Assembly (NCBI GenBank): GCA_965203485.1
Contig: OZ241892.1
Location: 384,001-448,000 of the forward strand
Length of the DNA stretch: 64,000 nt
Direction of reading: 5' to 3'
Source: Longimicrobiales bacterium
GTDB taxonomy: Bacteria > Gemmatimonadota > Gemmatimonadetes > Longimicrobiales > Gaopeijiaceae
Positions 7,399 through 45,479 of the stretch are shown here, piece by piece (positions within the stretch are counted from its first letter, which is position 1; every line of letters begins with the position of its first letter). Below the pieces are notes generated by a model. That model was not told where the DNA came from. It saw nothing but the letters and a program-made list of their open reading frames with translations, and did not search any database. The position numbers and the translations under genes are program-made.

Positions 7399-9117
7399 AT
7401 GACTCGACCCTTCGGCGTGCGGAGGCCGCCCGGCATCCGCGCTCGCGTTTCGGCGGCGCTGGCTTCGGCGAGCGCGTTGGCGGCGTGGGCGTGCGGACCC
7501 GCCATGCCGCCCGAGATCGCGGACGCGCCCCAGGCGGCGACTTCGATGGACGGCGTGGTCGTGGCGGCGCAGCCGCTGGCGGCGGAAGCGGGGGCGAGGA
7601 TGCTTAGGGCGGGCGGCAACGCGGCCGATGCGGCGGTGGCGGCGGCGTTCGCCGTGTCCGTGGTCGAGCCGTCGATGAACAGCATCGGAGGCCGCACCCA
7701 GATCCTCGTGCGCCTTCCGGACGGCGGGTTCGCCGGCGTCGACGCGACGACCCAGGCGCCGGCGTCCTACGATCCCGAGACGGCGCCGCAGGCTTCCTAC
7801 GGATATGCGACGGTGGGAGTGCCCGGCGCCGTCGCCGGACTGGTGCGGCTGCTCGACGACCACGGCACCATGCCGCTTGCCGAGGTCGTGGCGCCGGCCA
7901 TCGCGTTGGCGGAAGAGGGCTTCCACCTGCTTCCGGGCGAGGCCGCCCGCCACGCCGCCGGAGCCGCCCAGCTGGGCGAGTTCGCGGGGTCGCGCGCCCA
8001 CTTCCTGGACTCGGCGGGGCAGTCCCGTCCGGCGGGCAGCCTGTTCGTGCAGCCGGACCTTGCCGAGACGCTCCGGGCGATCGCGTCCGGCGGCGCCCGC
8101 GCCTTCTACGAGGGCGAGATCGGGCAGGCCATAGCGGCCGACGTCGCCGGCAACGGCGGCGCCGTGACGGCCCGCGCGCTGGCGGACTACCGCGCCGAGG
8201 ATTCCCGCATCGTGCACGGCAGCTACAGGGGCCACGAACTCGTGGGAACTGACTTGCCCGCGTCGGGGGCGGTGACGATCGGCGTCCTGCAAGTTCTCGA
8301 GCGCTTCGACATGGCGGCCTTGGACGAGCCCGAATGGGCGGCTCTCGTGGGGACGGCCGTCGCCGAGGTGTTCGCGCGCACTAGGGAGGACGGAACCGGC
8401 GACGCGACCAGCAAGGCGTGGGCCGCCGAGATCGCGGCGGGAATCGAGCTGCCGGGCGTGGCGCCGGTTGCCGCGGCGGCCTCGCCGGGTGCGCAGCCCG
8501 TGGAGGCGTTCACGGCGCCGTCGGCCGCGTCTCGCCTTTCGTTCGCCGGGGCCTCCGCGAGCTCCCACACGACGCACCTGTCCGCGGGCGACTCGGCGGG
8601 CATGTTCGTGTCGCTCACGCAGACGATCGGACCCAACCTCGGCTCCAAGGTCGCGACGCCCGGCTTGGGCTTCCTCTACGCGGCCACGCTCGGCGGCTAC
8701 CTGGGGCGGATGGAGCCGGGCGAGCGCGCGAGTTCCAGCATTTCGCCGCTCATGGTGCTTCGCGACGGGGAGCCGGCGCTGGTGCTCGGAGCGGCGGGCG
8801 GCAGCCGGATCGTGTCGGCCGTTGCGCAGGCCGTCCTGCGGGTCGTGGACCACGGAATGACGTTGGCCGATGCGCTGGCGGCGGCCCGCGTGCATCCGGT
8901 TGCGGGTGGAGTCGCGATGGAGACGTCGCCGGAGATCGGCTGGAGCGAGGCCGACGTGGAGACCGTCGGGTCTTGGGGACTGGAGGTGCAGGCGATCGCG
9001 CGCGCCGGTGCCTTCGGCCGCATCCACGGCATCCAGATCGACCCCGTTAGCGGAGAGATGACGGGCGTGGCCGATCCGGACTGGGAGGGAGCGGCGATCG
9101 TGCCGGACCGCAAGTGA
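7399..9117 (+). CDS. ggt: Gamma-glutamyltransferase family protein (Ntn hydrolase), probably an exported lipoprotein
   Basis: GGNAADAAVA, VVEPSMNSIGG, VGVPGAVAG, nucleophile HTTH, SSISP, LGAAGGSRI, GVADP. Confidence 0.9.
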   Translation: MTRPFGVRRPPGIRARVSAALASASALAAWACGPAMPPEIADAPQAATSMDGVVVAAQPLAAEAGARMLRAGGNAADAAVAAAFAVSVVEPSMNSIGGRTQILVRLPDGGFAGVDATTQAPASYDPETAPQASYGYATVGVPGAVAGLVRLLDDHGTMPLAEVVAPAIALAEEGFHLLPGEAARHAAGAAQLGEFAGSRAHFLDSAGQSRPAGSLFVQPDLAETLRAIASGGARAFYEGEIGQAIAADVAGNGGAVTARALADYRAEDSRIVHGSYRGHELVGTDLPASGAVTIGVLQVLERFDMAALDEPEWAALVGTAVAEVFARTREDGTGDATSKAWAAEIAAGIELPGVAPVAAAASPGAQPVEAFTAPSAASRLSFAGASASSHTTHLSAGDSAGMFVSLTQTIGPNLGSKVATPGLGFLYAATLGGYLGRMEPGERASSSISPLMVLRDGEPALVLGAAGGSRIVSAVAQAVLRVVDHGMTLADALAAARVHPVAGGVAMETSPEIGWSEADVETVGSWGLEVQAIARAGAFGRIHGIQIDPVSGEMTGVADPDWEGAAIVPDRK

Positions 9118-10766
9118 GAGAGTCCCGCCGAGCACGGCCCGCTGGATCCGAGGAGGCCGGAACGCACCGGCCGCCTGCGGAGTCGCCGGCCCGCCGCGTC
9201 GCCCGTGGCGGACTTCTTGCGGCTCTGGCTTTGGCCGGGTGCGAGGCCGCGCCCGCCTACGACCTCGTGTTGCGGGGCGGCCAAGTGCTGGACGGAACCG
9301 GCGCCCCGGCGCGCGTGGCCGACGTGGCAGTGCACGAGGGACGCATCGCGGCCGTGGGACCCTTGGGCGACGTGTCCGCCACGCGCGAGCTGGACGTGAC
9401 CGGCCTCTACGTCGCTCCCGGCTTCATCGACTCGCACTCCCATGCGGGCCCCGGCTTGGCCACGCCGGAGCTGAGCCACGCCGAGCCGCTTCTGGCCCAG
9501 GGGATCGCGACCGTCCTGGCGAATCCGGACGGCGGCGGCCCGGTCGATCTGGCCGGCCAGAAGCGCGCCTTGGAGACGGACGGCCTCGGCGTGAACGTCG
9601 CGCTCATGGCGCCCCACGGCTCGGTGCGGCGGGCAGTGATGGGCATGGAGGACCGCGACGCCTCGGCGGACGAGCTGGACCAGATGCGGACCCTGGTGCG
9701 CGCCGCCATGGACGAAGGCGCCTGGGGCCTCTCTTCGGGCACGTTCTACGCCCCCGGCAGCTACGCGGACAACGCCGAGCTGGTCGAGCTGGCCCGCGTG
9801 GCGGCCGAATACGGCGGCGTCTACTCCAGCCATATTCGCGACGAGTCGGACTATACGATCGGCCTCGAGGCCGCCGTCGAGGAAGTGATCGACGTGAGCC
9901 GGCAGACCGGAATCACGGCTGTGGTCACGCACGTCAAGGCTCTCGGCCCGCCCGTTTGGGGCGCGTCGGCGGCCGTCGTCGAGCGCATCGAGGCGGCGCG
10001 GGCCGCAGGACTGCCGGTGTACGCGGACCAGTATCCGTACTTGGCGTCGGCCACGGGCTTGTCGTCCGCCCTGCTGCCCCGCTGGTCGCAGGCAGGCGGC
10101 GCCGGCGCCCTTGAGGAGCGGCTCACCGATCCGGCGACGAGGGCGCGCATCCGAGAGGCGGCGGTGGAGAACTTGGCACGCCGCGGCGGCGCCGAACGCA
10201 TCCAGTTCCGGAGCTTTCGCGAGGACCCCTCCATCGAGGGGCGGCGGCTGTCCGAAGTCGCGGCGGAGCGCGGAGGCGATCCCGTGGACGTGGCGCTGGA
10301 GCTCGTCCGCGAGGGCGGTCCCTCCATCGTGTCGTTCAACATGCACGCGGACGACGTGCTCCGGCTCATGACGCAGGAGTGGACGATGACCTCCTCGGAC
10401 GGCGGCCTGCCCGCGTTCGGCGTGGGCGTGCCCCATCCGAGGTCCTACGGCGCCTTCGCGCGCAAGATCGGAAAGTTCGTGTTCGAGGACCGGGCCATGT
10501 CGCTGGAGGCCGCGGTGCGCAGCATGACGGGCCTGCCGGCGGACGTGCTGGGCATGGCCGACCGAGGGCGCGTCGCCGAGGGCATGGCCGCCGACGTCGT
10601 GGTGTTCTCGGACTTCTTCAAGGACAACGCCACCTTCGCCGAGCCCCACCAGCTGTCGTCGGGCGTCGTCCATCTCTTCGTGGCGGGCGAAGCGGCCATC
10701 CTGAACTCCGCGTTCACGGGCGCGCGGGCCGGATCGGTGCTGGCGCGGGAGAACGTTCGCCGCTGA
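9114..10766 (+). CDS. N-acyl-D-amino-acid deacylase (amidohydrolase family), lipoprotein
   Basis: VAPGFIDSHSH, YSSHIRDE, ADQYPY, SSDG, PHPRSYGAF; lipobox LAGC; GTGA overlap with the ggt stop. Confidence 0.9.
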   Translation: MRESRRARPAGSEEAGTHRPPAESPARRVARGGLLAALALAGCEAAPAYDLVLRGGQVLDGTGAPARVADVAVHEGRIAAVGPLGDVSATRELDVTGLYVAPGFIDSHSHAGPGLATPELSHAEPLLAQGIATVLANPDGGGPVDLAGQKRALETDGLGVNVALMAPHGSVRRAVMGMEDRDASADELDQMRTLVRAAMDEGAWGLSSGTFYAPGSYADNAELVELARVAAEYGGVYSSHIRDESDYTIGLEAAVEEVIDVSRQTGITAVVTHVKALGPPVWGASAAVVERIEAARAAGLPVYADQYPYLASATGLSSALLPRWSQAGGAGALEERLTDPATRARIREAAVENLARRGGAERIQFRSFREDPSIEGRRLSEVAAERGGDPVDVALELVREGGPSIVSFNMHADDVLRLMTQEWTMTSSDGGLPAFGVGVPHPRSYGAFARKIGKFVFEDRAMSLEAAVRSMTGLPADVLGMADRGRVAEGMAADVVVFSDFFKDNATFAEPHQLSSGVVHLFVAGEAAILNSAFTGARAGSVLARENVRR

Positions 10767-10979
10767 AGCGAGTCAGGTCGGGCGGCCGCGTGGCTGCTTG
10801 GCCAGCGACGTGCGATTGCTTGGTCTTCGCCGCCAAGGCACGAGACGGCCGTCCAGCGCCTCGTGAGCTTCGCGTCGAATGTCCCGGCGCAGCGCTCGCT
10901 CCGACTCGGCGGGCGTGAGTGAATGGCGGCCGGGCTTGTCGCCGAGCCGGCAATCGGGCGGCCGGATCCTCCACGGGCG

Positions 10980-11008
10980 GGAACTTCTTCGAGGCCTCCG
11001 GTGTACTT
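10980..11008 (+). promoter_or_regulatory. Candidate ECF-type promoter GGAACTT-N16-GTACTT upstream of the ECF sigma gene
   Basis: RpoE-like -35 element with 16-nt spacer; the same architecture occurs at 24951-24980 (+) and 18581-18609 (-). Confidence 0.45.
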
Positions 11009-11069
11009 GCTAGCAGGCCCGGCTCCGCAACGGAGGAACGGGCGGCTACCCGCAAGGAGCAGGAGAACG

Positions 11070-11690
11070 ATGACAGACCCGAACACGGCGCGACCCTTGG
11101 AGGCTCCTGCGGACGACCAGACGGCGCCTCCCCAGGAAGGGGACCTCGGCAGGGCCGACGGGAACGCCGAGGCCGCCGACGGCGGCCGGTGCATCACGGA
11201 CGAACACTTTGGGCACTTGGTCGAGCAGCACCGGACCTGGCTTCTCCATGTCGCGGAGCCCTACCGAGGCCGAGCCGTAACCGCGGAAGACTTGGTTCAA
11301 GAGGGAATTTGGGCGGCCTATCGCAACCTACACAAGCTGCGCAAGCCGTCGGGAGCGCGAGCTTGGCTGGCGCGGTTCGTTCGCTACGCCGGTCTGAAGG
11401 CTGCAGAGAAGCACCGGACACGGGCCGAGCTGATGGAGAGCTACGCTGTCACGCGAGAGCAGGAGTACGCCGATTCGCCTGAAGAAATCATGGAGCGCAG
11501 GATGAGGAACGAGGCGCTCGACCGCGCAATCGACCGCCTGCCCGCCGGCATGCGAGCCGTGATCAATTGCCGTCGCGACGGACTGTCGGTGAGAGCGACC
11601 GCTCGACAGCTCGACATGCCGGAGGGCACGGTGAAGTGCTACACCAGCCGTGGCATCAAGGCGTTGCGCGAAGCCATGCGCCAGGCCTGA
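11070..11690 (+). CDS. ECF-type RNA polymerase sigma-70 factor
   Basis: Region 2 (AEDLVQE...WLARFVR) and region 4 (AIDRLP...GLSVRATARQLDMPEGTVKCYTSRGIKALR); RBS AGGAG before ATG 11070. Confidence 0.85.
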   Translation: MTDPNTARPLEAPADDQTAPPQEGDLGRADGNAEAADGGRCITDEHFGHLVEQHRTWLLHVAEPYRGRAVTAEDLVQEGIWAAYRNLHKLRKPSGARAWLARFVRYAGLKAAEKHRTRAELMESYAVTREQEYADSPEEIMERRMRNEALDRAIDRLPAGMRAVINCRRDGLSVRATARQLDMPEGTVKCYTSRGIKALREAMRQA

Positions 11691-11695
11691 CCCGC

Positions 11696-12625
11696 ATGTC
11701 CTCGTCCCTCGGCGCCGTTCTGCTCGCCTCGTTGGCGTTCGTCCCGCCCGCGTACGCGCAAGTCGACGCGTTTCCTGCGACGTCGCAGCAGTACCGCTGG
11801 GGACGGATCGTCTATCCCGTCCAGGAGCACGCCGAGCTCGGCGGGCGGGCGGGGTTCGAATCCATCGACAGCATCATCGGCGCCCTGGCAACGCGGCCGC
11901 AGTTCCCCGGATTGCCGCCCACTGCCCGCTTCGACGATCGCGTGACGATCAGCTTTGCGGTCGCCGAAGCGAAGGTCGGCATCGAGGGCTGGAGTCGGCC
12001 GGAGCAGGCCTTGATCGTCCTGCCCCTGGACCGATTCTTGGCGTGGGACGACGACCGGCTCGGCCGCGTCCTTCGCCACGAATACGCCCATATTCGGATG
12101 CATGCCTTTCTGGGTCTGGACGACCCGCCCCAGTGGTTGCAGGAGGGGTTCGCCGAATGGGCCGCCGGGGGTCTCACGTGCCAGAGCGCCTGGCGGCTGT
12201 GGTTCGACGCGCGCCAGAGGAGCGACTCCGAACGGTCGCCGCCGCTGAGCGACCTGTGGCGGAAGTATCCGGACCGGCTGGCGTACGACTACTCGGCGTC
12301 GTTCTTCGAATTCTTGGAGGCGAAACGGCCCGGATTCGTGTCGGGAGGCAGCCTCATGAAGGCCATCAGGGACTACGGTCTGGCGAGTGCCTTTGCAGCG
12401 GTGTGGGGTGCCGAGCTGGAAGTGGCCGAAGACGACTGGCGGCGCTACCTTGCCGACCGATTCGAAGAGGAGCCGGACAGGCGCGGTTGCAACGAGGCCC
12501 TGGTGGTGGGACAGCGAGGCGCAGTGCGCCCGGCGGAGAACAAGCGTCAGGAACCCGGCCGACCGAGGGCCCCATCGGCGGTCGGCGGGCCCGCGTTGCA
12601 ACCAATCTCGATTTCATCGGGATAA
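11696..12625 (+). CDS. Secreted zinc metallopeptidase, peptidase MA-like (gluzincin)
   Basis: Signal peptide ending AYA|Q; HEYAH plus PQWLQEGFAEW third-ligand motif. Confidence 0.8.
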   Translation: MSSSLGAVLLASLAFVPPAYAQVDAFPATSQQYRWGRIVYPVQEHAELGGRAGFESIDSIIGALATRPQFPGLPPTARFDDRVTISFAVAEAKVGIEGWSRPEQALIVLPLDRFLAWDDDRLGRVLRHEYAHIRMHAFLGLDDPPQWLQEGFAEWAAGGLTCQSAWRLWFDARQRSDSERSPPLSDLWRKYPDRLAYDYSASFFEFLEAKRPGFVSGGSLMKAIRDYGLASAFAAVWGAELEVAEDDWRRYLADRFEEEPDRRGCNEALVVGQRGAVRPAENKRQEPGRPRAPSAVGGPALQPISISSG

Positions 12626-12726
12626 AGGGGTAGGAGCGGGATGGAACGAGGCCAATCCGTCGGCCGACCCGCCCGGGAGGCCGCGAGGGCGGCCTGCCAT
12701 TCACACTCACGCGAGGAGTAGAGACC

Positions 12727-13248
12727 ATGAAGACGGCTGTCACACAAGCTGCCTGGATGGTGGCGGCAATCGCGGCGTTGGCGGCATCGCCGATGGCGGC
12801 GGCCGCGCAGCAGGACTGCGGCCGCACGTGCCATTCGTGCGGCTTCCTTAAGCTCTCCGACGAGGGCAGAGACTACGTGGGCAGGGCAAACGGCTTCGAC
12901 ATGGATTGCCGCTTCCTGAGTTGCCGGCGTTGCCAGCTAGCGCCGAACGACGTCGGCGACGCTGGCCTTCCGGCCGCCCACGCCCTGCGTGCGATCCAGG
13001 GAGCCTCGGCGGACTCGCTGTCTGCACTGGTCGCTCACTATTCCGGTCGCTTGCTTCTGGACGAGTCGCGACGGTTGCTGGCGATGCGGGGTATCGGTTG
13101 TGCAAGCGACCATGTGACGGCGGTCGTCTTCTTGAGCCGAGAGACAACGATTGCCGTAAGCGCCCTGATTGACGGGCGCCTGCCCGCTGTCGTTGCGCCA
13201 CGGCCGATGCCGGGATCTCGCAGCTTGGACTTGGAGGGTGGGCGATGA
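12727..13248 (+). CDS. Secreted Cys-rich hypothetical protein, copy 1
   Basis: RBS GAGGAG; Ala-rich signal peptide ending AAA|Q; CX3CX2C-X22-CX4CX2C; clear paralog at 14519-15040. Confidence 0.8.
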   Translation: MKTAVTQAAWMVAAIAALAASPMAAAAQQDCGRTCHSCGFLKLSDEGRDYVGRANGFDMDCRFLSCRRCQLAPNDVGDAGLPAAHALRAIQGASADSLSALVAHYSGRLLLDESRRLLAMRGIGCASDHVTAVVFLSRETTIAVSALIDGRLPAVVAPRPMPGSRSLDLEGGR

Positions 13249-14462
13249 AGGCACATCTGAAGTCGCTGGTTGCGCTCCGTCGCCCGGGAACGTGGTGCGT
13301 TGTCGCGACGTCATGCATTGGCGCGTGCCAGCCAGACGATGCGAGCCGGAGTCTGGATTCCTTCGTCGACGGCACGTGCGCGATTCCCGAAGTCAATCAA
13401 GAAGAAGGTCGTATTCGCCTTGAGCTGGCCGCCCAACTAGGTACGGACGATTCGGAAAACGCGGCGCTCATTCCGGTTCCCGGCGCGACTCACCCGGTCC
13501 GCGACCGCTTGGGCCGATATTGGGTAGGCCAGACGGGAGAGTTGCTGTTGTTCGAACCGGGCGGCTCTTACGCCGCGACGGTGGGAAGAAAAGGGCAGGG
13601 TCCGCTGGAGTTCTTGGATGCGTTGCCGTTCTACGTTGATCCGCTTGACCAAGTGCACGTCTTGGACCCAGAGAACGGCAGGGTATCGGTGATTCGTCAA
13701 GACCTCTCCCTTGCAGCCGCCATCTCGTTGCCGGCGTGGGTTCACGACATCGTGCCTCTATCCGAAGGGGATCGCTATGCGTTCACGTCCTGGATCACCG
13801 ACGGCGAGAGCGCGGGATTTCCGATTCACGTCTTGGACGGCGGCGGGATTGTGAGGTCAATCGGCGCCCTCCCGGATGATCAATCCTCCGAGGCTGCCGG
13901 CGACGTGCTCGTTGCCAGCATGTATCTGGCCAAGGGCGCAGGAGATCTGCTTTTCAGCGCTCATCGCGACCGGTACGTGGTCGATGCTTGGCGGAGCGAT
14001 GGATCGAGCGCCGGACGCCTGGAGGGACCCGTGCTCAACGGACGAGCCGAAGCTTCACAACTTCCGGGTGATGCCCAGCCGCCGCCGAACATCATTAAGG
14101 ACATACACGTCGACGACGACGAGAGACTGTGGGTGATCGCCGCGTTCACAAGGTCGAATTGGCGGGACGCCATGATCGAGCGAGTGGCGCCGGACGGTAG
14201 CGTGATTTTCGTGCCAGCCGACATGGACGCCGTTGGGAGGATATGGCGATTTCGTTTGGACGTCATCGACTTGGGCGCATGTCGGGCAGTGGCTTCCCAA
14301 TGGCTGGATCGCCCTACCAGCCTGGGATTTGGTTCCTTTCTGCCGTCTCGAGACGTCGTTTCGTTGACGGATGGCATGTACGGAGACTTGGGAGCGTTGC
14401 TCGTCAACATTTGGAACGTCGAGTTGATAACATCGTCATCAGGAACACGTCCTGGAACTTAG
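13245..14462 (+). CDS. 6-bladed beta-propeller lipoprotein, copy 1
   Basis: Lipobox-like IGAC; VGRKGQGPLEF motif typical of NHL/6-bladed propeller lipoproteins; ATGA overlap with the upstream gene; paralog at 15037-16224. Confidence 0.8.
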   Translation: MKAHLKSLVALRRPGTWCVVATSCIGACQPDDASRSLDSFVDGTCAIPEVNQEEGRIRLELAAQLGTDDSENAALIPVPGATHPVRDRLGRYWVGQTGELLLFEPGGSYAATVGRKGQGPLEFLDALPFYVDPLDQVHVLDPENGRVSVIRQDLSLAAAISLPAWVHDIVPLSEGDRYAFTSWITDGESAGFPIHVLDGGGIVRSIGALPDDQSSEAAGDVLVASMYLAKGAGDLLFSAHRDRYVVDAWRSDGSSAGRLEGPVLNGRAEASQLPGDAQPPPNIIKDIHVDDDERLWVIAAFTRSNWRDAMIERVAPDGSVIFVPADMDAVGRIWRFRLDVIDLGACRAVASQWLDRPTSLGFGSFLPSRDVVSLTDGMYGDLGALLVNIWNVELITSSSGTRPGT

Positions 14463-14518
14463 CCGAGGACGTTGCACTAGATCGGCGACGAATACACCGA
14501 GGAACCGAGGATCATCAC

Positions 14519-15040
14519 ATGACATCAGAGAAGAAGCGAAGCCGTCCTGCCGTTATGGTGTTAGCGCTGGCGTTCGTGGTCGTTATGTCTCCTTTGCCTG
14601 CGATCGCTCAATTGGCAGATGGTGAAGACTGTGGAAACAGATGTCGGACATGTGGCTTCTTGTGGCTCTACCATGAAGGAAGGGGCCATGATCCAGACGG
14701 AACGAACAACATGGACTGTCGTTTTTTGGACTGCCTGACGTGCATTGGAGCGCCGACTTCCGTGAGCGATGTCCAGGCCACGGAATCGGCAGTGCTGGAT
14801 TCCATCCGCCGAGCCGATTCTCGCGCACTACATGCTCTCGCGAGGAAATACGCAGGTCGCCTAATCCTGAATGAGTCGCGAAATCTGCTTGCTATGCGCG
14901 GTTTCGGATGCCGCGCCGAGCAGATCACTGCTGTCATATTTTTGGGTGCGAACACGACGGCGGCCCTCAAGCGTCTCAATGTCTTGGAACTCACCGGCGC
15001 TGAAACCATGGCGACAAAACCAAGAGGTCCGGCCAATTGA
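14519..15040 (+). CDS. Secreted Cys-rich hypothetical protein, copy 2
   Basis: Signal peptide ending AIA|Q; CX3CX2C-X21-CX4CX2C; shares CGFL, EGR, MDCRFL and LLAMRGxGC with copy 1. Confidence 0.8.
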   Translation: MTSEKKRSRPAVMVLALAFVVVMSPLPAIAQLADGEDCGNRCRTCGFLWLYHEGRGHDPDGTNNMDCRFLDCLTCIGAPTSVSDVQATESAVLDSIRRADSRALHALARKYAGRLILNESRNLLAMRGFGCRAEQITAVIFLGANTTAALKRLNVLELTGAETMATKPRGPAN

Positions 15041-16224
15041 GCATTCCGCGCACGAGAATGGTTGGTCGGGCTGGCCGTCGGCGACAGTGGATTGCATGCG
15101 GGCTCGTCGGCTTGGGGGCATGCCGACCAGACTCTCCGAGAGGGTCCTTTATAGAGGGTACGTGCACGATTGCGGAGATCACGCAGTCACAGGGCCAGCT
15201 TCGCTTTGAACTGGCGGTGCAACTGGGTGGCGAGGGCACCGAACAAGGTCTGCTGATGCCGGTGCCCGGGACGACGCGTCCGTTGCAAGACTCCCTAGGA
15301 AGGTACTGGATGGGCCAAGGCACCCTGGGCGAGGTGCTGGTCTTCGAGCCGGACGGAACCTTTGCGGCGACCGTCGGCAAGAAGGGCCAGGGCCCGCTGG
15401 AGTTTCTCGATCCCGTTCCGTTTCACGTCGATCCAACGGGGCTGGTTTATGTCTTCGACTGGGAAAACGGCAGGGTCTCGGCGATCGGAGAGGACCTGTC
15501 GTTGCGCGCCGAGATGACTGTACCAGCGGCAGCCCACCAGATGGTCGGGTTGCCCGGGCGAATGCGATTTGCGGCCACGGCATGGGTTCCGAGCAGCAGG
15601 GAGGCCGGATTCCCGATTCACATTCTGGAAGACGGCCAGATCGTGTCGTCCGTGGGAGCTGTGCCCAGCGACCTCGCTGCCGACGTGCTGGAGGATTACG
15701 ACGTGCGGAACACGTTCCTGTCAACAGACCGTGACGGCAATATATTTTCCGTCGGCCGGCACAGGTACCGCGTCGAGGCATGGAGCCACGACGGATCGAG
15801 AATTGGACGAATAACAGGACCGTCTCTCGGAAACGAATGGCGCCGGAGCGTGCCGCTGAGCGACGATAACCCTCCACCGAACATCATGACGGACATTAGT
15901 GTTGACGACGATGGAAGGATATGGCTTCTCATGGCCGAACGACGACCGAATTGGATGGGAGGGATGGAAGAAAGGATTTCGGCCAGCGGCGATGTGTCGC
16001 TCATGCCGAAGGATGGCCTCGTCAGTGGCGTGTACCGCTTTCGCCTAGACGTCATCGATGTCGACGCGTGCACGCCGTTGGCGTCACAGTGGCTGGACTT
16101 CCCGGAAACTCATGGAGTCGGCGCCTTCATGGCGGACGGAAACCGCACTTCCATTGTCGACCTGACGATCGGAGAAATCGGCGATCCGTTCGTGCGGGTG
16201 TGGAATGTCGACTTGGTGCGCTGA
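15037..16224 (+). CDS. 6-bladed beta-propeller lipoprotein, copy 2
   Basis: Lipobox LGAC; VGKKGQGPLEF; shares ELAxQLG, GRYW, ENGRVS, AGFPIH, PPPNI, FRLDVID, ASQWLD and WNV with copy 1; TTGA overlap with the upstream stop. Confidence 0.8.
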   Translation: MSIPRTRMVGRAGRRRQWIACGLVGLGACRPDSPRGSFIEGTCTIAEITQSQGQLRFELAVQLGGEGTEQGLLMPVPGTTRPLQDSLGRYWMGQGTLGEVLVFEPDGTFAATVGKKGQGPLEFLDPVPFHVDPTGLVYVFDWENGRVSAIGEDLSLRAEMTVPAAAHQMVGLPGRMRFAATAWVPSSREAGFPIHILEDGQIVSSVGAVPSDLAADVLEDYDVRNTFLSTDRDGNIFSVGRHRYRVEAWSHDGSRIGRITGPSLGNEWRRSVPLSDDNPPPNIMTDISVDDDGRIWLLMAERRPNWMGGMEERISASGDVSLMPKDGLVSGVYRFRLDVIDVDACTPLASQWLDFPETHGVGAFMADGNRTSIVDLTIGEIGDPFVRVWNVDLVR

Positions 16225-16334
16225 GGCGGCTAGGTGACCGCGCGGAGTTCTCCACGAAGGCGCGAAGCGGCCGCTCGTCGCGTCCCGATCGTCGCGCCTA
16301 ACGCGCCCGGCGCCAAGAGCGGCGATCCGTTGGC

Positions 16335-25018: not shown

Positions 25019-26644
25019 ATGATCTACATCTGCATTCCGGCGCGCGACGAGAGTCGCACGGTTGGCGTTCTGCTCTGGAGGATTCGGGAGACCATGGCCG
25101 AACTCGGCCGCGACTACCACGTGCTGGTCCTGGACGACGGTTCGAGCGACGACACCGCCGCCCTGCTCAAGCGGTACGAGCGCGTGCTGCCGCTGACCGT
25201 ACTGGCGCACGACCGTCCGCGCGGCTACGGCCGCGGAGTGGAGCGGCTCCTCAAGGAAGCGGCGAATCGAGTTCGCTACCCCAAGAGGGACGCGGTCGTC
25301 GTCATGCAGGCGGACTTCACCGACCCGCCCGAGCACTTGGCCAAGCTCGTCAGGACACTGGAGGGCGGGGCGGACGTCGTGGCCAGCGTGCCGTCCGGTG
25401 CGGCGCCGGCGCCGTGGCCCGTTCGTGCCGCCCTGCGCCTCGCGCGATTCGTCTTGGGGCGCCGAGGCGCGCCCTCGGACGCGGGCCGCCTGTGCGGCTT
25501 CCGCCTCTACCGCGCGAAGGTCGTCACGGCCGCCTTCGAAGCCGCGGCCGGACACCGGCTTCTTGCCCGCGACGGCTGGGCGGCCAATGCGGAGCTCCTT
25601 GCCAAGCTGGCGCCTTTCGCGCGCAGGGTGGCCGTCGCCCCCATGGAGCCGCGCTACGACATGCGGAGCCGCAGGAGCCGCGTGCGCCCGATCGCAGTTG
25701 CCGGCGAGCTGCTGCGTCTCCGCAGGACAGTTGCCGCGTTGGCATTGTGGTCGTCTGTGGGCTTGGCCGGCGTTCCCGGCGCGGCGCCGGGTCAAGCCTT
25801 CGTCCGCGATACGTTGCGGATGTCCACTCCGGCCCCGGCCCGCATCCCCTTCGCGGTCGGCGAGACGTTGCGCTACAAGGTCAAGTTCGGCTGGTTCAAC
25901 GTCGGCGAGGGCTGGATGTCGGTGCCCCGAGTCGACACGGTCGGGGAGTTTCCGGCGTACGCGGCGGAGTGGCGCATCAGTGGCGGCGTCCCCTTCTACA
26001 AGATGGACTCGAAGTTCTACAGCTGGATGGACGAGAGGACGCTGGTGTCCCGGCGCTTCGTCAAGGATCAGCACGAAGGAGGACGCAAGTCGTTCAAGGA
26101 ATACCTGTTCTTTCCCGAGGAGCGCAAAGCGCGGCGGATCGACTACGACACCACGAGCGTCATGCCCACTGCGTTGCCGCTGGACGACGTGTCGTTCGTG
26201 TACTTCGCGCGCACGTTGCCGCTGGAGGTCGGCGAGACCTACGTGTTCAACCGCTACTTCAAGGAGGAGGGGAACCCCGTCGTCATTCGGGTGCTGCGCA
26301 AGGACGAACGGAAGGTCGGCGCGGGCAAGTTCAATACGATCGTGGTGCAGCCCGTCATCAGCACGGACGGCCTGTTTTCGGAGGGCGGACGCGCGGAGAT
26401 ACACTTCTCCGACGACGAGCGCCGCATGGTGGTCTACATGGAAACGCATTTCGCCGGCATCAGCCTGTCGCTTCATCTCGAAGAGATCCTGCCGCCGGGG
26501 TCCGCCGAGGTGGAGTCGGCCGGCAGCGACGGGCCTGCTTTCGCTTCCGGCAGCGCGGCGACGGCGGGCCGGGGTTTCGCCGCCGCCGGCCTCGGTTGCG
26601 GTCCCGCCGACTCCGGGCGCGGCGTGGAGGGAGCACGGCGCTGA
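25019..26644 (+). CDS. Glycosyltransferase family 2 domain fused to a DUF3108-like domain
   Basis: N-terminal CIPARDE, LDDGSSD, MQADF; an internal hydrophobic segment, then PFAVGETLRY...VGAGKFNT...FSDDERR typical of DUF3108. Confidence 0.8.
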   Translation: MIYICIPARDESRTVGVLLWRIRETMAELGRDYHVLVLDDGSSDDTAALLKRYERVLPLTVLAHDRPRGYGRGVERLLKEAANRVRYPKRDAVVVMQADFTDPPEHLAKLVRTLEGGADVVASVPSGAAPAPWPVRAALRLARFVLGRRGAPSDAGRLCGFRLYRAKVVTAAFEAAAGHRLLARDGWAANAELLAKLAPFARRVAVAPMEPRYDMRSRRSRVRPIAVAGELLRLRRTVAALALWSSVGLAGVPGAAPGQAFVRDTLRMSTPAPARIPFAVGETLRYKVKFGWFNVGEGWMSVPRVDTVGEFPAYAAEWRISGGVPFYKMDSKFYSWMDERTLVSRRFVKDQHEGGRKSFKEYLFFPEERKARRIDYDTTSVMPTALPLDDVSFVYFARTLPLEVGETYVFNRYFKEEGNPVVIRVLRKDERKVGAGKFNTIVVQPVISTDGLFSEGGRAEIHFSDDERRMVVYMETHFAGISLSLHLEEILPPGSAEVESAGSDGPAFASGSAATAGRGFAAAGLGCGPADSGRGVEGARR

Positions 26645-27186
26645 GAGCCGGGGAACGACGTTTGCGCCTTCGCAGCGCGTGGCTTCTGGCCGCGGTGTGC
26701 CTCTGGTTCGCTCGGCCAACCGAGTGGTCGCTCTGGTTGGGGGCCTGCGTGGTCTTGACGGGCTTGGCCGTGAGGGCCTGGGCCGCTGGCACGCTCGAAA
26801 AGGACTGGCGCCTGACCGTCGCCGGCCCCTACGCCTTCACGCGGAACCCGCTCTACCTTGGGAGCTTGATCATCGGCCTGGGCGCCTCCGCGGCTTCGGG
26901 CCAACCGTGGCTCGCAATCGTCTTCCTGGCCTTCTTCGCGTGGACGTACCTGCCGACGATGACGTCGGAAGCCCAGCGCCTTGAGAAGCAGTTCGGCCCG
27001 GACTACGCGCGCTACAGAGCTCGGGTGCCACTTCTGATTCCTCGCCTCCGCCGCTACCGCGTCGTCTCGCCCGGCGCCGCTGACACGTCCTTTTCGCTCG
27101 GCCGCTACGGTCGCAACAAGGAGTACGAAGCCCTGCTCGGCGCCGTCGCCGGCTTCGCGGCGTTGCTTGTCAAGGCGGCGTGGTAG
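26641..27186 (+). CDS. Isoprenylcysteine carboxylmethyltransferase / PEMT family membrane protein
   Basis: GPYAFTRNPLYLGS, EAQRLEKQFGPDYARYRARVP; start uncertain (CTG 26641 after GGAGG, or TTG 26662). Confidence 0.8.
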   Translation: MRAGERRLRLRSAWLLAAVCLWFARPTEWSLWLGACVVLTGLAVRAWAAGTLEKDWRLTVAGPYAFTRNPLYLGSLIIGLGASAASGQPWLAIVFLAFFAWTYLPTMTSEAQRLEKQFGPDYARYRARVPLLIPRLRRYRVVSPGAADTSFSLGRYGRNKEYEALLGAVAGFAALLVKAAW

Positions 27187-36199: not shown

Positions 36200-36934
36200 G
36201 GATTGCCTTCCGTTCTGAATGCTGGTGGGCCGCCGGCGCCTCTGGGCCGAGGGCCAAGGAAGATAACGCGGACGCAGTTGCGCGCAAGCCGGCGGCGTCG
36301 CGCCCGGTATCGCACCAAAACAGAAATGCGGGCCGGCGCGCGCGAAGGGCGGCCCCAGAACTCCCGGCGACCGCCCGAGCTCCGCCTCGTCCAGACGATG
36401 CGAATGATCCGGCGCGCGCCGACAGTCGCCGTACACGCCGCCGCCGGGAGCCGGGGCGGCCTTCCGCGGATGGGCAGGGCGCCCCGTGTCCCGTTCCTGG
36501 GTCCGGCGGCCGCGCAGGCTCGGCTCGGGCGGCGTGGGATGTCCCCCGGGGCGCCGTGGGGGCTCGAGGGATGCCGTCGGGTCCGGCGCGACAGCGGACG
36601 ATTGGCGTCAAGGTCGGGGACTCCACGTGTTGGCCGGTGGCCCCAGGCAGCTCTTCGAGTCGCCATGGCCGTGCTTCCCCTCCCGTAGCCGTGGCTCTTC
36701 GGGGGCTGCACGGAGGCGCCGATCGGCGCCGAAATCGCCTCGCCGGAGAGAGGCGCGGGGCGTCTCGAAGCTGATCAATTTTTCGGAAAAATATGTTTCC
36801 TCCCTAGATGGCATATGCCGTGCAGGCCGGGCGGCTTCCGCGTATCAGTTCCGTATTTGGACGGAAACAAATGTGCATCGCGGATCACCTGGCGCGAAGC
36901 GGAAAACAACTGATTACGGACGTAGCTTGATTTC

Positions 36935-36965
36935 TCCTAAATCCTTGCTCAGCAACGATTTAGGA
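36935..36965. promoter_or_regulatory. 31-bp near-perfect palindrome in an AT-rich intergenic region
   Basis: TCCTAAATCCTTGCT-C-AGCAACGATTTAGGA: 15-bp arms with one mismatch. Confidence 0.6.
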
Positions 36966-37117
36966 TGATTTCGGACGCCCGGCTCGGCGATCGGCCCGAT
37001 TTGCGGGCGGCCGTCCGTTTGCCTATCGTTGGGACGCTTGCCGCCTCCGGTGGCCGCCACGAGGCGGTCGGTCGGCCCAAGACCCGAACACCCTCCTGCT
37101 TGAGAGCGAATTTGCGC

Positions 37118-37312
37118 ATGTGGAGCACGCGATCCGTCCGTTTGAACGTCCGGTTGCCCGACGACGTGTCCGTCCAGGCGGAGGAGTTGCAGCAGTCCGA
37201 CCCGGACTTCATGAGTTGGATCATTCAATACGGCCTCACGCGCCGTTCGATCTATCGCGACATGCGCGACGCGGAACGCGATTCCCCGGGGCCGCCGCTG
37301 GCCGTCACGTAG
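37118..37312 (+). CDS. Small hypothetical protein, possible ribbon-helix-helix fold
   Basis: SVRLNVRLPDDV alternating strand followed by helices; 64 aa. Confidence 0.6.
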   Translation: MWSTRSVRLNVRLPDDVSVQAEELQQSDPDFMSWIIQYGLTRRSIYRDMRDAERDSPGPPLAVT

Positions 37313-37476
37313 GACTCCGTCGTCCAGCACCGGCATCGGCCCGGCGGCTGGAACTGTCGATTCGGCTTGACGGCAGGCCGCCAGTGATCGAATGTTATTG
37401 TCAAGCTCAAGCGCAAGACGCATGATCACCAACGGTCTTCCCTCGTGCACTGGGCACGGATCCGGCGGAGGGAGCA

Positions 37477-37779
37477 ATGGTGGACCAGAACGAAGAATCG
37501 GTGTTGCGCGCGAAGTACAGGGACTACTGCTCCGCGCGGGTAGCCGACGCGTTGTTGTCCCTCTCGCCGAACGACATCTATTCGCTGGCGGAAACCGAGG
37601 CCCGGGAAGCGGGCCAAGCGTCGCCTGCTTCCTACAACGAGGCCATCCGCTTCGCCACGCGCAGCATACGATCTCGGCTGGACCTGCCCGACTTTCGCGT
37701 GTGGGCGGAGGAGTACCGAAGCGAACCCGGCCGGTTCGACCCGCACTTGATGGGGTTGTGGAAGTCGGAAGAAGAGTAG
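37477..37779 (+). CDS. Hypothetical protein (100 aa)
   Basis: RBS GGAGGGAG; protein-like composition (KYRDYCSARVAD...LPDFRVWAEEY...GLW). Confidence 0.75.
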   Translation: MVDQNEESVLRAKYRDYCSARVADALLSLSPNDIYSLAETEAREAGQASPASYNEAIRFATRSIRSRLDLPDFRVWAEEYRSEPGRFDPHLMGLWKSEEE

Positions 37780-37807
37780 TCCCGCTCCCGGCGCGGCTCT
37801 CCGCCTT

Positions 37808-38023
37808 CTACTTGTAGCGGTACGTCACCCGGCCGCGCGTGAGGTCGTACGGGGACATCTCGACCTTTACGCGGTCGCCGGCAAGCACGCGGATGTAGAA
37901 CTTTCGCATCTTGCCGGACAGATAGGCGAGGATCTCGTGGCCGTTCTCGAGCTTCACCCGAAAGTTGGTGTTGGGCAACACCTCGGTGACGGTGCCCTCC
38001 ATCTCGATCGCGTCGTTGGCCAC
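37808..38023 (-). CDS. infA: Translation initiation factor IF-1
   Basis: [39 protein letters not shown]. Confidence 0.97.
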
Positions 38024-43485: not shown

Positions 43486-44367
43486 ATGTCGCGCCCCGAT
43501 CTCTGCGTCATGGCCGTAGCGCCGCCGACTAAATCTATCGACGCCGAAGACGCGGAGGCACGATTGACGCTCTTTCCATCAACCGATTTGGATAAGCTGG
43601 CCACGCAGATTGAGAAATTTGAAGCTGACGAGAGCGTGCCCAGCACGGGGACAGGCAGCCGGCGTGAAGGAGAAAAGTTCGAGGGTCTAGTGAAGCGTTT
43701 CTGGGACGCCTTGCGCGTTCACCTGGAGTGCGGCGATGTGACTTCCGAGGTTGTTGAGCAGATGGTGCCTCGACGGGGACTCTGCACTTGGTCCCGTCTT
43801 TCTGTCGGCAGTCGAGCAGTTTACGTTCCTTCCCTCGCGACGGGGCCGCCTGGGAATGCTCCCGATGGCTGGCTAGATACATCTTTTGAAGTCGGTGCAC
43901 TGGTTGCCAGCTTTCCGGGCACAGGAGAAGCCATTAGGCGCTATGCACCTGATCAAGGACGGTACAAGAGCCAATGTTATCCGAAGATGTTCGAAAAGAA
44001 GACCACTGTTTTTGATGAAACGATATTGTTCGAAGAAGACTGCATCCTGAAAGAAAAAATGCTATTAGAGTACAAGACGGCGAAGTCAAGCAAGGGTAAG
44101 TCGCTAGACGGTAACGCGCACGAAAGACTATCGTTTCAAATCATGCAATACCTTGAGGTCGCCACTCGATTTCCACATTGTTCACTTTGCGTACTGGCAA
44201 ATGGTGCCTTTGTGAAATACGAAAACAAATATCATGTGAATTTCCACATCCAGGCCGATCGATTGAATGTGTTTCGGTGGTTTTCCATGTTCTTTGCATG
44301 CACGCGAAGAGAGTATGCCGCCCTTGTTGAGCGCATTGTGAAGTGGCTGCATCCTCACGAATCATGA
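43486..44367 (+). CDS. Putative type II restriction endonuclease (PD-(D/E)xK)
   Basis: FDE...LLEYK catalytic-like motif, GNAHER motif, low GC (27/60 in 44161-44220), ATGA-coupled to a DNA methyltransferase. Confidence 0.7.
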   Translation: MSRPDLCVMAVAPPTKSIDAEDAEARLTLFPSTDLDKLATQIEKFEADESVPSTGTGSRREGEKFEGLVKRFWDALRVHLECGDVTSEVVEQMVPRRGLCTWSRLSVGSRAVYVPSLATGPPGNAPDGWLDTSFEVGALVASFPGTGEAIRRYAPDQGRYKSQCYPKMFEKKTTVFDETILFEEDCILKEKMLLEYKTAKSSKGKSLDGNAHERLSFQIMQYLEVATRFPHCSLCVLANGAFVKYENKYHVNFHIQADRLNVFRWFSMFFACTRREYAALVERIVKWLHPHES

Positions 44368-45479
44368 TCAAGTACATCGGTTCGAAGCGCATCCTGGTGC
44401 CAGCTATTGTTGACGTTGTGCGTTCTCTCGACGGCGTGCGAAGCGTCGCCGACTTGTTTTCCGGCACCTCTCGCGTAGGGCATGCGTTGAAGAGACGAGG
44501 CTACCGCGTGCTGGCCAACGACCACATGGCGTACGCGCACGCTCTCGGAACGTGCTACGTCCAGGCAGACGCGGACGACGTGGCCGATGCGGCCGCGTCG
44601 CTGATTTCGGAGTTCAACCGACTGCCGGGCCGGCCGGACTACTTCACAGAGACGTTCTGCGAGAGGAGCAAGTTCTTCAAACCCGGAAACGGCGCCCGCG
44701 TGGACGCCATTCGGCAGGCGATCGAGGACAAGGATCTGCCGCCCGACTTGGAGGCGGTCGTGCTCGTGTCTCTCATGGAAGCGGCGGACCGAGTGGATTC
44801 CACGGTAGGAGTGCAAATGGCCTACCTGAAGTCGTGGGCTCCCAGGGCGTTCAACGATCTCGTGTTGAAAATGCCCGACGTCTTGCGACGTCCTCGGAAC
44901 GGGCGATGCCAGGCGCATTGTCTCGACGCGGCGGACGCCGCATCGACCCTCGCAGCCGATTTGACGTACATAGATCCGCCGTACAATCAACATTCCTACC
45001 TGGGAAATTACCACATATGGGAATCGTTGGTGCAATGGGACAAGCCCGCGCACTATGGCGTGGCGTGCAAGCGGATCGATTGCCGCACGCGGAAGAGCGA
45101 CTTCAACAAACGCGGAACGACCATCTCTGCATTTGAGCAAGTCGTGGCGAATACGCAATCTCCCTTCTTGCTTGTCTCGTTCAGCGACGAGGGCTTCATC
45201 AGCCGGGCGGAGATGGAACGGGTCCTGGGGAGCCGGGGCGACGTCCATGTTCTGGCCTTTTCCCACAAGCGCTACGTCGGAGCGCAGATCGGCATCCACG
45301 ATCCTCGCGGCAGGCGCGTGGGCGTGGCCGGCCACCTGCGGAACACCGAATACTTGTATGTCGTGGTTCCGCCGGGACACGCGTGGTCGATGCCGGAGCT
45401 GTTCGACGCTCAGGGCCTTCTTTTTGGGGAAGACGGCGCTGGGCCGGAGCGGATGCGCGTGGAGTCCGGCCGGCAGTGA
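44364..45479 (+). CDS. N6-adenine DNA methyltransferase (D12 class)
   Basis: KYIGSK, DLFSGT (motif I), YIDPPYN (motif IV), NYH. Confidence 0.92.
   Translation: MIKYIGSKRILVPAIVDVVRSLDGVRSVADLFSGTSRVGHALKRRGYRVLANDHMAYAHALGTCYVQADADDVADAAASLISEFNRLPGRPDYFTETFCERSKFFKPGNGARVDAIRQAIEDKDLPPDLEAVVLVSLMEAADRVDSTVGVQMAYLKSWAPRAFNDLVLKMPDVLRRPRNGRCQAHCLDAADAASTLAADLTYIDPPYNQHSYLGNYHIWESLVQWDKPAHYGVACKRIDCRTRKSDFNKRGTTISAFEQVVANTQSPFLLVSFSDEGFISRAEMERVLGSRGDVHVLAFSHKRYVGAQIGIHDPRGRRVGVAGHLRNTEYLYVVVPPGHAWSMPELFDAQGLLFGEDGAGPERMRVESGRQ

Follow-up and report, generated by a model that had tools for sequence, protein, structure and literature searches.

Small proteins of the NVEALA family (PF14055) are encoded beside DUF5128 (PF17170) propellers in Bacteroidota, and Sec-exported disulfide-bonded bacteriocin or peptide-signal cassettes include a maturation protease together with an immunity or receptor protein. 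Here we describe a cassette that resembles both. It lies at positions 11070..16224 of a 64,000-nt stretch of DNA from a Longimicrobiales bacterium (contig OZ241892.1, positions 384,001 to 448,000), which is called the window below, and its conserved part codes for a predicted exported cysteine-rich (Cys) protein, a beta-propeller lipoprotein and a gluzincin metallopeptidase. No published or curated-family description of this cassette was found, subscription journals and supplements being outside the search, and the literature searched contained no paper on the NVEALA/propeller neighbourhood.

The likeness to the NVEALA loci consists in a small Cys protein, predicted to be secreted, next to a lipoprotein with a six-bladed propeller. 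The cassette differs from them by its 170-aa two-domain Cys protein, its dedicated peptidase and, according to source labels, the phylum. Membership in NVEALA, suggested by the comparison made in the initial annotation, is not borne out, as PF14055 matches 0 of 109 Cys-family members at E 0.01; in the window's own genome this profile gave no match, but neither did the positive control. With bacteriocin and signal cassettes the locus shares the presence of a precursor, a protease and a binding partner in one operon, and a partner that can stand alone. Unlike them, it has a putative pro-part that is C-terminal and folded, its protease is a gluzincin, its partner is a propeller lipoprotein, and it is known here from genes. 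The same genomes contain loci that combine a Cys mini-protein, a propeller of the same superfamily and DsbA; these have short peptides, an oxidase and no C-terminal domain (C-domain), whereas the cassette has a C-domain and a protease but no oxidase. Similarity to DUF5128 and NHL propellers (TRIM71, Brat, Thin; 6d69, 8j72) is seen in profile matches that cover part of the chain (10 of 17 aligned propellers match PF17170), while the cassette propellers form a lipoprotein subfamily tied to the Cys protein and the peptidase. Solved gluzincins (M9 collagenase 7wss, 4ar8; M30 lugdulysin 7bb8; M1 aminopeptidases) share with the cassette peptidase the HExxH motif, a downstream Glu and the gluzincin fold (Z 12–14); unlike them, the latter is a single 245-aa domain, 13–15% identical to them, with no accessory domains. 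NHLRC2, as far as the accessible part of its description goes (PMC6107167), also links an NHL-type propeller to thiol chemistry; unlike it, the cassette contains no thioredoxin (Trx)-like gene or domain, and the partner is a separate, predicted-exported protein. The new elements are thus the unnamed Cys-protein family and its dedicated protease, the sigma factor, gluzincin and NHL-type propeller being partly familiar.

Six co-directional open reading frames (ORFs), noted in the initial annotation, are present in the sequence within a block of lower G+C:

10767..16334, no strand assigned, inserted lower-G+C block, ends approximate, between amidohydrolase and S58 peptidase genes
11070..11690, + strand, extracytoplasmic function (ECF) sigma factor, 206 aa (Pfam Sigma70_r2, r4_2; TIGR02937)
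11696..12625, + strand, metallopeptidase of gluzincin type (Peptidase MA-like) with predicted signal peptide (HExxH and E150; fold model)
12727..13248, + strand, CysA, 173 aa, predicted Sec signal, six-Cys core and C-terminal domain (sequence, family alignment)
13245..14462, + strand, PropA, 405 aa, DUF5128/NHL-like beta-propeller, lipobox IGAC with C28 (PF17170 2.1e-5)
14519..15040, + strand, CysB, 173 aa, CysA paralogue (44% identity to CysA)
15037..16224, + strand, PropB, 395 aa, PropA paralogue, lipobox LGAC with C29 (PF17170 8.1e-5, NHL 8.5e-4)

Each Cys gene is coupled to its propeller gene by a 4-nt stop/start overlap, as had been reported: ATGA at 13245-13248 (CysA/PropA) and TTGA at 15037-15040 (CysB/PropB). 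The second overlap depends on a TTG start for PropB, an alternative ATG being at 15058.

The conserved unit comprises three of these genes, not six: those for the Cys protein, the propeller lipoprotein and the gluzincin. The full trio was found in nine genomes (the window's and eight others) from three families, at unrelated sites and each time among different genes. The initial annotation expected the Cys gene always to precede the propeller gene, with the peptidase upstream; we observed four orders instead, namely Pep-Cys-Prop-Cys-Prop in the window, Cys-Prop-Pep (four), Prop-Cys-Pep (three) and Prop-Cys-Pep-Prop-Prop (congener G001). In the forward test, Cys-profile matches of at least 56 bits occurred in 10 genomes, two of which (G472 and G468) were first found via the peptidase. 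An adjacent co-oriented propeller gene was present in all ten, and a peptidase gene within 2 kb in eight. In the reverse test, a peptidase scoring above 170 bits was found in 7 of 314 family genomes, four of these being profile seeds. All three non-seed copies adjoin both a Cys and a propeller gene, compared with 0 of 23 loci of the housekeeping paralogue described below (1.5 kb on each side), in agreement with the proposal that the peptidase is a dedicated partner. A Cys gene lies within 2 kb of each of the nine cassette-type peptidases in the genomes.

A profile of the C-domain alone gave 42 matches in 36 of 42 loci, with a co-oriented propeller gene within 700 nt in 41 and a peptidase gene in eight; the matches include fragments and close kin, and the profile was built partly from the same loci. 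Adjacency of this kind is expected by chance in 2% of cases, and the predicted conserved neighbourhood is thereby supported. The identity matrices of the three proteins correlate (Mantel rho 0.79–0.90 over 9 loci, 0.48–0.82 without the most divergent rows). As kin share their history, this shows joint inheritance only and not physical contact. The window Cys protein and peptidase are each 38% identical to their counterparts in another genus versus 32% and 35%, respectively, to those of congener G001, which hints at transfer or old paralogy. On the whole, the cassette is rare among the scanned genomes.

The block is an insertion, since the amidohydrolase and S58 peptidase genes flanking it are only 214 bp apart in G001, where the site is empty, and enclose different 2.8-kb DNA in G002 (L295, G002:C1:154858-157617). 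The latter stretch includes a partial copy of the 3' end of the S58 peptidase gene. The initial annotation had placed the insertion among core amidohydrolase genes; the insertion holds, while the flanks prove to be genes for a gamma-glutamyltranspeptidase, one amidohydrolase and an S58 peptidase. The counts of G and C given there (33/60 in 14641-14700 versus 45/60 in 8401-8460) are exact; over the six genes the G+C content is 62.9%, with 73.2% and 71.9% in the flanks, and the block is at the 5.5th percentile among same-length windows of the genome. Other G+C dips within the window are at 43501-45000 (52–55%), 36501-38000 (64%) and 25501-27000 (66%). An assembly artefact was ruled out, as the whole stretch is covered within single contigs in two of four public runs with zero letter differences (these runs possibly being the source sample); no RNA run containing it was found. 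The window's genome (G000) is a single contig of 3.56 Mb. None of the six block proteins matches PADLOC defence-system models.

Could the genes be unrelated cargo collected at an insertion hot spot? Propellers are abundant (64 profile matches in G000), and different DNA occupies this site in G002. Nevertheless, we regard this explanation as highly improbable: both neighbourhood tests contradict it, and chance clustering was rejected, given that the three protein families recur jointly at unrelated sites.

The Cys family, with more than 120 clusters at 50% identity, is unnamed and has no curated family; no Pfam or NCBIfam family is common to its members. The search with CysB gave 127 matches among 50%-identity representatives, at least three of them spurious. 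Three long matches (P0085, P0114 and P0126) are repeats with no relation to the family; with these discounted, no fusion protein was found. Eight of the 127 matches fell outside 125–210 aa and were excluded; alignment A2 consisted of 107 matches plus CysA and CysB, 109 members in total. The source label of the cluster members is 'Gemmatimonadota bacterium', with one labelled Gammaproteobacteria.

The aligned members have a common layout. A predicted signal peptide ending at A↓Q is followed by C-G-x2-C-x2-C, then by a segment of about 20 residues in which EG and G-x-Y-x-M are conserved, and then by C-x4-8-C-x2-C. After a loose linker, in which columns are at most 46% conserved (residues ~76-90 of CysB), comes a 70-residue domain with conserved R114, R121, G128 and C131 (CysB numbering). 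Exactly seven cysteines are present in the mature part of 103 of the 109 proteins, six in the core of 105, and one in the C-domain of 106 (97%). The core cysteines are C31, C35, C38, C61, C66 and C69 in CysA and C38, C42, C45, C67, C72 and C75 in CysB; the lone ones are C125 and C131, respectively. In other genomes the C-domain is also joined to more distant Cys cores. The structure model of CysB has two confident domains and a less certain linker (mean predicted local distance difference test (pLDDT) score 84.1, predicted template modelling score 0.53). Compared with solved folds, it gave no significant match, with a best Foldseek E of 0.27 and a best Z of 4.7 (root-mean-square deviation (rmsd) 2.3, 51 residues aligned), the N-terminal core being barely covered. 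Neither the sequence search of solved structures nor the ESM Atlas gave a usable match to the Cys protein, and these blanks imply neither a new fold nor absence.

Other searches for family members were less productive. The word-indexed homologue search with CysA returned only the query, the locus search with CysB found nothing, and none of the 120 stretches picked up by the motif scan in genome contigs was a family member. The same scan of metagenome contigs gave 32 stretches, including two real loci. At L062:275-1544, genes for a regulator-like protein and a hybrid sensor kinase are followed downstream by two tandem family members with no intervening propeller gene; this contig stops 278 nt past the second member.

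The window peptidase has HEYAH at residues 128-132 and the third-ligand Glu at E150. Residues H128, E129, H132 and E150 are invariant in 10/10 cassette-type peptidases and 51/51 aligned homologues. Against PF13485 (Peptidase_MA_2, cut-off 32.4 bits) the window protein scored 17.6 bits and two homologues 31.6 and 23.0, all below the cut-off. Its model (pLDDT 89.8) has the gluzincin fold (Foldseek E 5.8e-5) and aligns with 7wss (Z 14.4, rmsd 3.6, 215 residues) and 7bb8 (Z 13.9, rmsd 3.4, 222 residues); residues beyond ~268 are not conserved. A weaker-scoring paralogue of housekeeping type is encoded in 56 of 61 related genomes. All 39 housekeeping copies end with a hydrophobic helix, a membrane anchor, which none of the eight scored cassette copies has. 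The ninth cassette copy was excluded from this scoring by the motif filter, and the protein ends directly after the domain. The two types are separated on the tree by a branch with 99/100 support; since the tree is unrooted, we infer rather than observe that the cassette peptidase was derived from the housekeeping gene. In the alignment of cassette peptidases (A3), a Cys after the zinc motif and a C-terminal Cys are jointly absent in G001 and G294, and P0136 has only the first of them; the paired loss suggests that the two may form one disulfide. Scanning 114, 301 and 401 more genomes with the peptidase profile yielded profile seeds only. In large scans 6–22 candidates per genome were scored, and weaker copies may be missed.

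Our preferred reading of these data, held tentatively and at somewhat less than an even chance, is that a self-folding Cys protein is clipped by its own protease and docks on its own propeller. The seven-Cys protein would be exported as a pro-protein, and its six-Cys core would fold aided by the lone Cys of its own C-domain. The soluble, anchor-less gluzincin would then cut the Cys protein, most likely in the linker (~76-90 of CysB), and the released core would dock on the partner propeller lipoprotein, which could be a receptor or a protective binder. The two Cys–propeller pairs of the window would share one protease, with the ECF sigma factor as an optional regulator of the cassette. A precedent for the folding step is the propeptide of BPTI: as the available part of the source describes it, a free cysteine of the pro-region accelerates folding and is then removed by cleavage (PMC549202). 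That the cassette peptidase acts on the Cys protein at all has, in our estimate, about even chances.

Conversely, the peptidase itself could be the working product, exported to act on outside proteins, the Cys protein being its inhibitor or chaperone and the propeller a tether for the pair. The peptidase has no membrane anchor, the folds closest to it are those of secreted M9 collagenase and M30 domains, and a Cys gene accompanies every cassette-type copy, all of which agree with such a role. The majority of Cys–propeller pairs (34 of 42), however, have no peptidase, the window contains two Cys genes per one peptidase, and the length of the mature N-terminus varies, unlike in N-terminal zinc-chelating inhibitors. 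We consider this scheme unlikely.

The pro-protein reading implies a source of thiol chemistry within the Cys protein, and the gene neighbourhoods are relevant to it. DsbA or redoxin genes were found within 2.5 kb of 0 of 42 C-domain matches, and a PF00578 or PF13462 gene within 2 kb of 0 of 10 cassettes. The DsbA profile recovered 34/34 control loci; at 11 of them a propeller gene is adjacent, and nine of these 11 contain a short signal-bearing Cys-rich ORF. The C-domain was found at 0 of the 34 DsbA loci. In G000, five of the seven DsbA genes pair with propellers. That the lone C-domain cysteine replaces DsbA is conceivable, though we rather doubt it. In its full form, this idea concerns exported disulfide-rich effectors, for which a thiol catalyst in a follower domain would stand in for DsbA, a protease recruited from the membrane-anchored housekeeping type would remove this domain, and the cognate propeller would read or neutralize the released six-Cys core; as a whole we regard it as speculative and on the unlikely side.

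The DsbA loci are equally relevant to another interpretation, in which the propeller retains the Cys protein in the envelope as its carrier or as a platform for its folding, a split analogue of NHLRC2; the protease would trim or clear, and there would be no receptor or immunity step. At the loci just listed, propellers do occur together with DsbA and short Cys peptides, each window Cys gene is coupled to its own propeller gene, and NHLRC2 is a fusion of a Trx-like domain and an NHL propeller that share a cleft, as stated in the accessible part of the same report (PMC6107167). On the other hand, the cassette has no thioredoxin-fold gene, and propellers are retained singly or in extra copies without cargo. 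A carrier role appears rather unlikely to us.

Against PF17170 (cut-off 22.9 bits) PropA scored 24.3 bits and passed, and PropB, with 22.4 bits, was just below. The propeller profile matches solved NHL propellers, the best being 6d69 (E 4.4e-30); the number of six blades is taken from family matches. Local duplication of the pair, proposed in the initial annotation, is supported by the trees: CysA and CysB are sisters (support 90/87, not starred), and PropA and PropB, 47% identical, fall in one 100/99 clade that includes a truncated propeller copy from G002. For the A/B pairs, the ratio of nonsynonymous to synonymous substitutions (dN/dS) is 0.27. Saturation of the synonymous sites shows that this duplication is old.

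Propellers of the close clade occur without Cys or peptidase genes in G000, G001 and G002, with extra copies in G001. An orphan propeller gene of G000 (G000:C1:2225104-2226279, L026) occupies the site where G001 has Prop-Cys-Pep-Prop-Prop. It is 85–88% identical to the three copies of G001; viewed in 100-nt windows, the latter look mosaic. Lone propellers fit a partner that is useful by itself, but also plain collapse of a tandem array. Because propellers persist alone, we slightly favour a role in protecting against a competitor peptide over one in signalling.

At six further sites in G000, a propeller gene comes after a small, signal-bearing Cys-rich ORF from an unrelated family; three of these sites also have a DsbA-like gene. 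Their coordinates in G000:C1 are:

139257-141298, Cys-rich ORF and propeller site
187070-187363, Cys-rich ORF and propeller site
8634-9615, Cys-rich ORF and propeller site
131769-133882, Cys-rich ORF and propeller site
2027256-2027459, Cys-rich ORF and propeller site
2415984-2417545, Cys-rich ORF and propeller site

A cluster in G002 (L023:2-5573), next to two propeller genes, codes for radical SAM, small Cys-rich and propeller proteins, an ABC transporter and an S8-like protein; judging by the translations, we presume that this cluster resembles that of quinohemoprotein amine dehydrogenase.

Binding of the Cys protein to the propeller is the step that we consider probable. The modelled PropB–CysB complex scored 0.37 (runs 0.50/0.37/0.19), the best of three controls scoring 0.00; at least 35% of contacts were common to the runs, and the pLDDT of the partner was at least 57. 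The pass mark used admits 116 of 157 solved complexes along with 2 of 215 mismatches; passes at 0.60 or less include only 18 of the 157 solved complexes and yet both passing mismatches. Modelling thus lends weak support to this complex.

Several observations weigh against cleavage of a self-folding precursor followed by docking. No cleavage-site motif was seen in the linker of the family alignment, and the lone cysteine could equally form a dimer bond. There is no peptidase gene within 2 kb of 34 of the 42 C-domain matches, and G328 and G474 have no cassette-type peptidase genome-wide; hence, cleavage by this peptidase is not required across the Cys superfamily. Two Cys genes, L217:7997-8392 (G294) and L315:5457-5987 (G474), have an in-frame internal deletion that takes half of the core and the linker, and G294 keeps the propeller and peptidase genes beside its half-core Cys gene. 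As for the DsbA comparison, a redoxin fragment is located ~1.3 kb from a seven-Cys protein missed by the C-domain profile (L230), two of the nine mini-proteins at DsbA loci have an odd number of cysteines, and many of the loci compared are close kin. The orphan propeller of G000 is explicable by recombination between tandem copies. Finally, the dN/dS of 0.19–0.32 on four close propellers points, at the level of whole genes, to purifying rather than diversifying selection, and rapid arms-race diversification is not supported.

The ECF sigma factor matches PF04542 (Sigma70_r2; 42.3 bits, 6.4e-11), PF08281 (r4_2; 35.6 bits, 7.4e-9) and TIGR02937 (78.8 bits). With regions 2 and 4.2 only in 206 aa, it belongs to the ECF sigma-70 factors (group 4). 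As initially reported, no anti-sigma gene adjoins it. It is not the fixed cassette part it had been taken for: an ECF gene is upstream in only two of 11 cassette loci, and these two ECFs belong to separate clades. The window ECF groups (approximate likelihood-ratio test (SH-aLRT) support 97) with two other propeller-adjacent ECFs, and in G000 eight of the 13 ECF genes, three of them in one cluster, have a propeller gene no more than 4 kb away, against an expectation of 1.6. It is therefore an optional regulator, yet no stray. The word-indexed search for ECF homologues yielded the protein itself and one 31% match. No common promoter motif was found upstream of 23 gene starts, and scans for sigma-70 promoters and for terminators did no better than chance. 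The word GGAACTT, presumably similar to an ECF −35 element, occurs at 10980-10986, 90 nt before the ECF start, and at 14454-14460, 65 nt before CysB. It occurs at a frequency of 3.8e-5 per position; it was picked post hoc and is not common to other loci.

The association of ECFs with propellers also bears on a scheme in which the Cys protein stays uncut, as a disulfide-linked dimer or a redox- or metal-responsive propeller ligand, and the pair, controlled by the ECF, senses or buffers stress in the envelope, with the peptidase responsible for turnover only. The highly conserved lone Cys, together with R114, R121 and G128, would suit it as well. However, no conserved transducer, anti-sigma or transporter gene was seen near the cassette at the examined loci, and the ECF gene is absent from nine of 11 loci. 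This scheme too seems improbable to us, and the clipped pro-protein remains our tentative choice.

The pairing of Cys proteins with propellers is a wider, still uncharacterised theme in genomes that carry dozens of DUF5128-like propellers (such as those of G000) with no assigned role. The cassette provides a compact testable handle on it: three small genes, an operon with two natural cognate pairs, and a clear processing prediction. If the propeller is a carrier, the cassette would be informative for DsbA-type cassettes and NHLRC2-like proteins. If the follower-domain model is true, it would represent a new scaffold and a new way of making disulfide-rich peptides, and the large propeller expansions would obtain a function along with a rule, follower domain or DsbA but never both.

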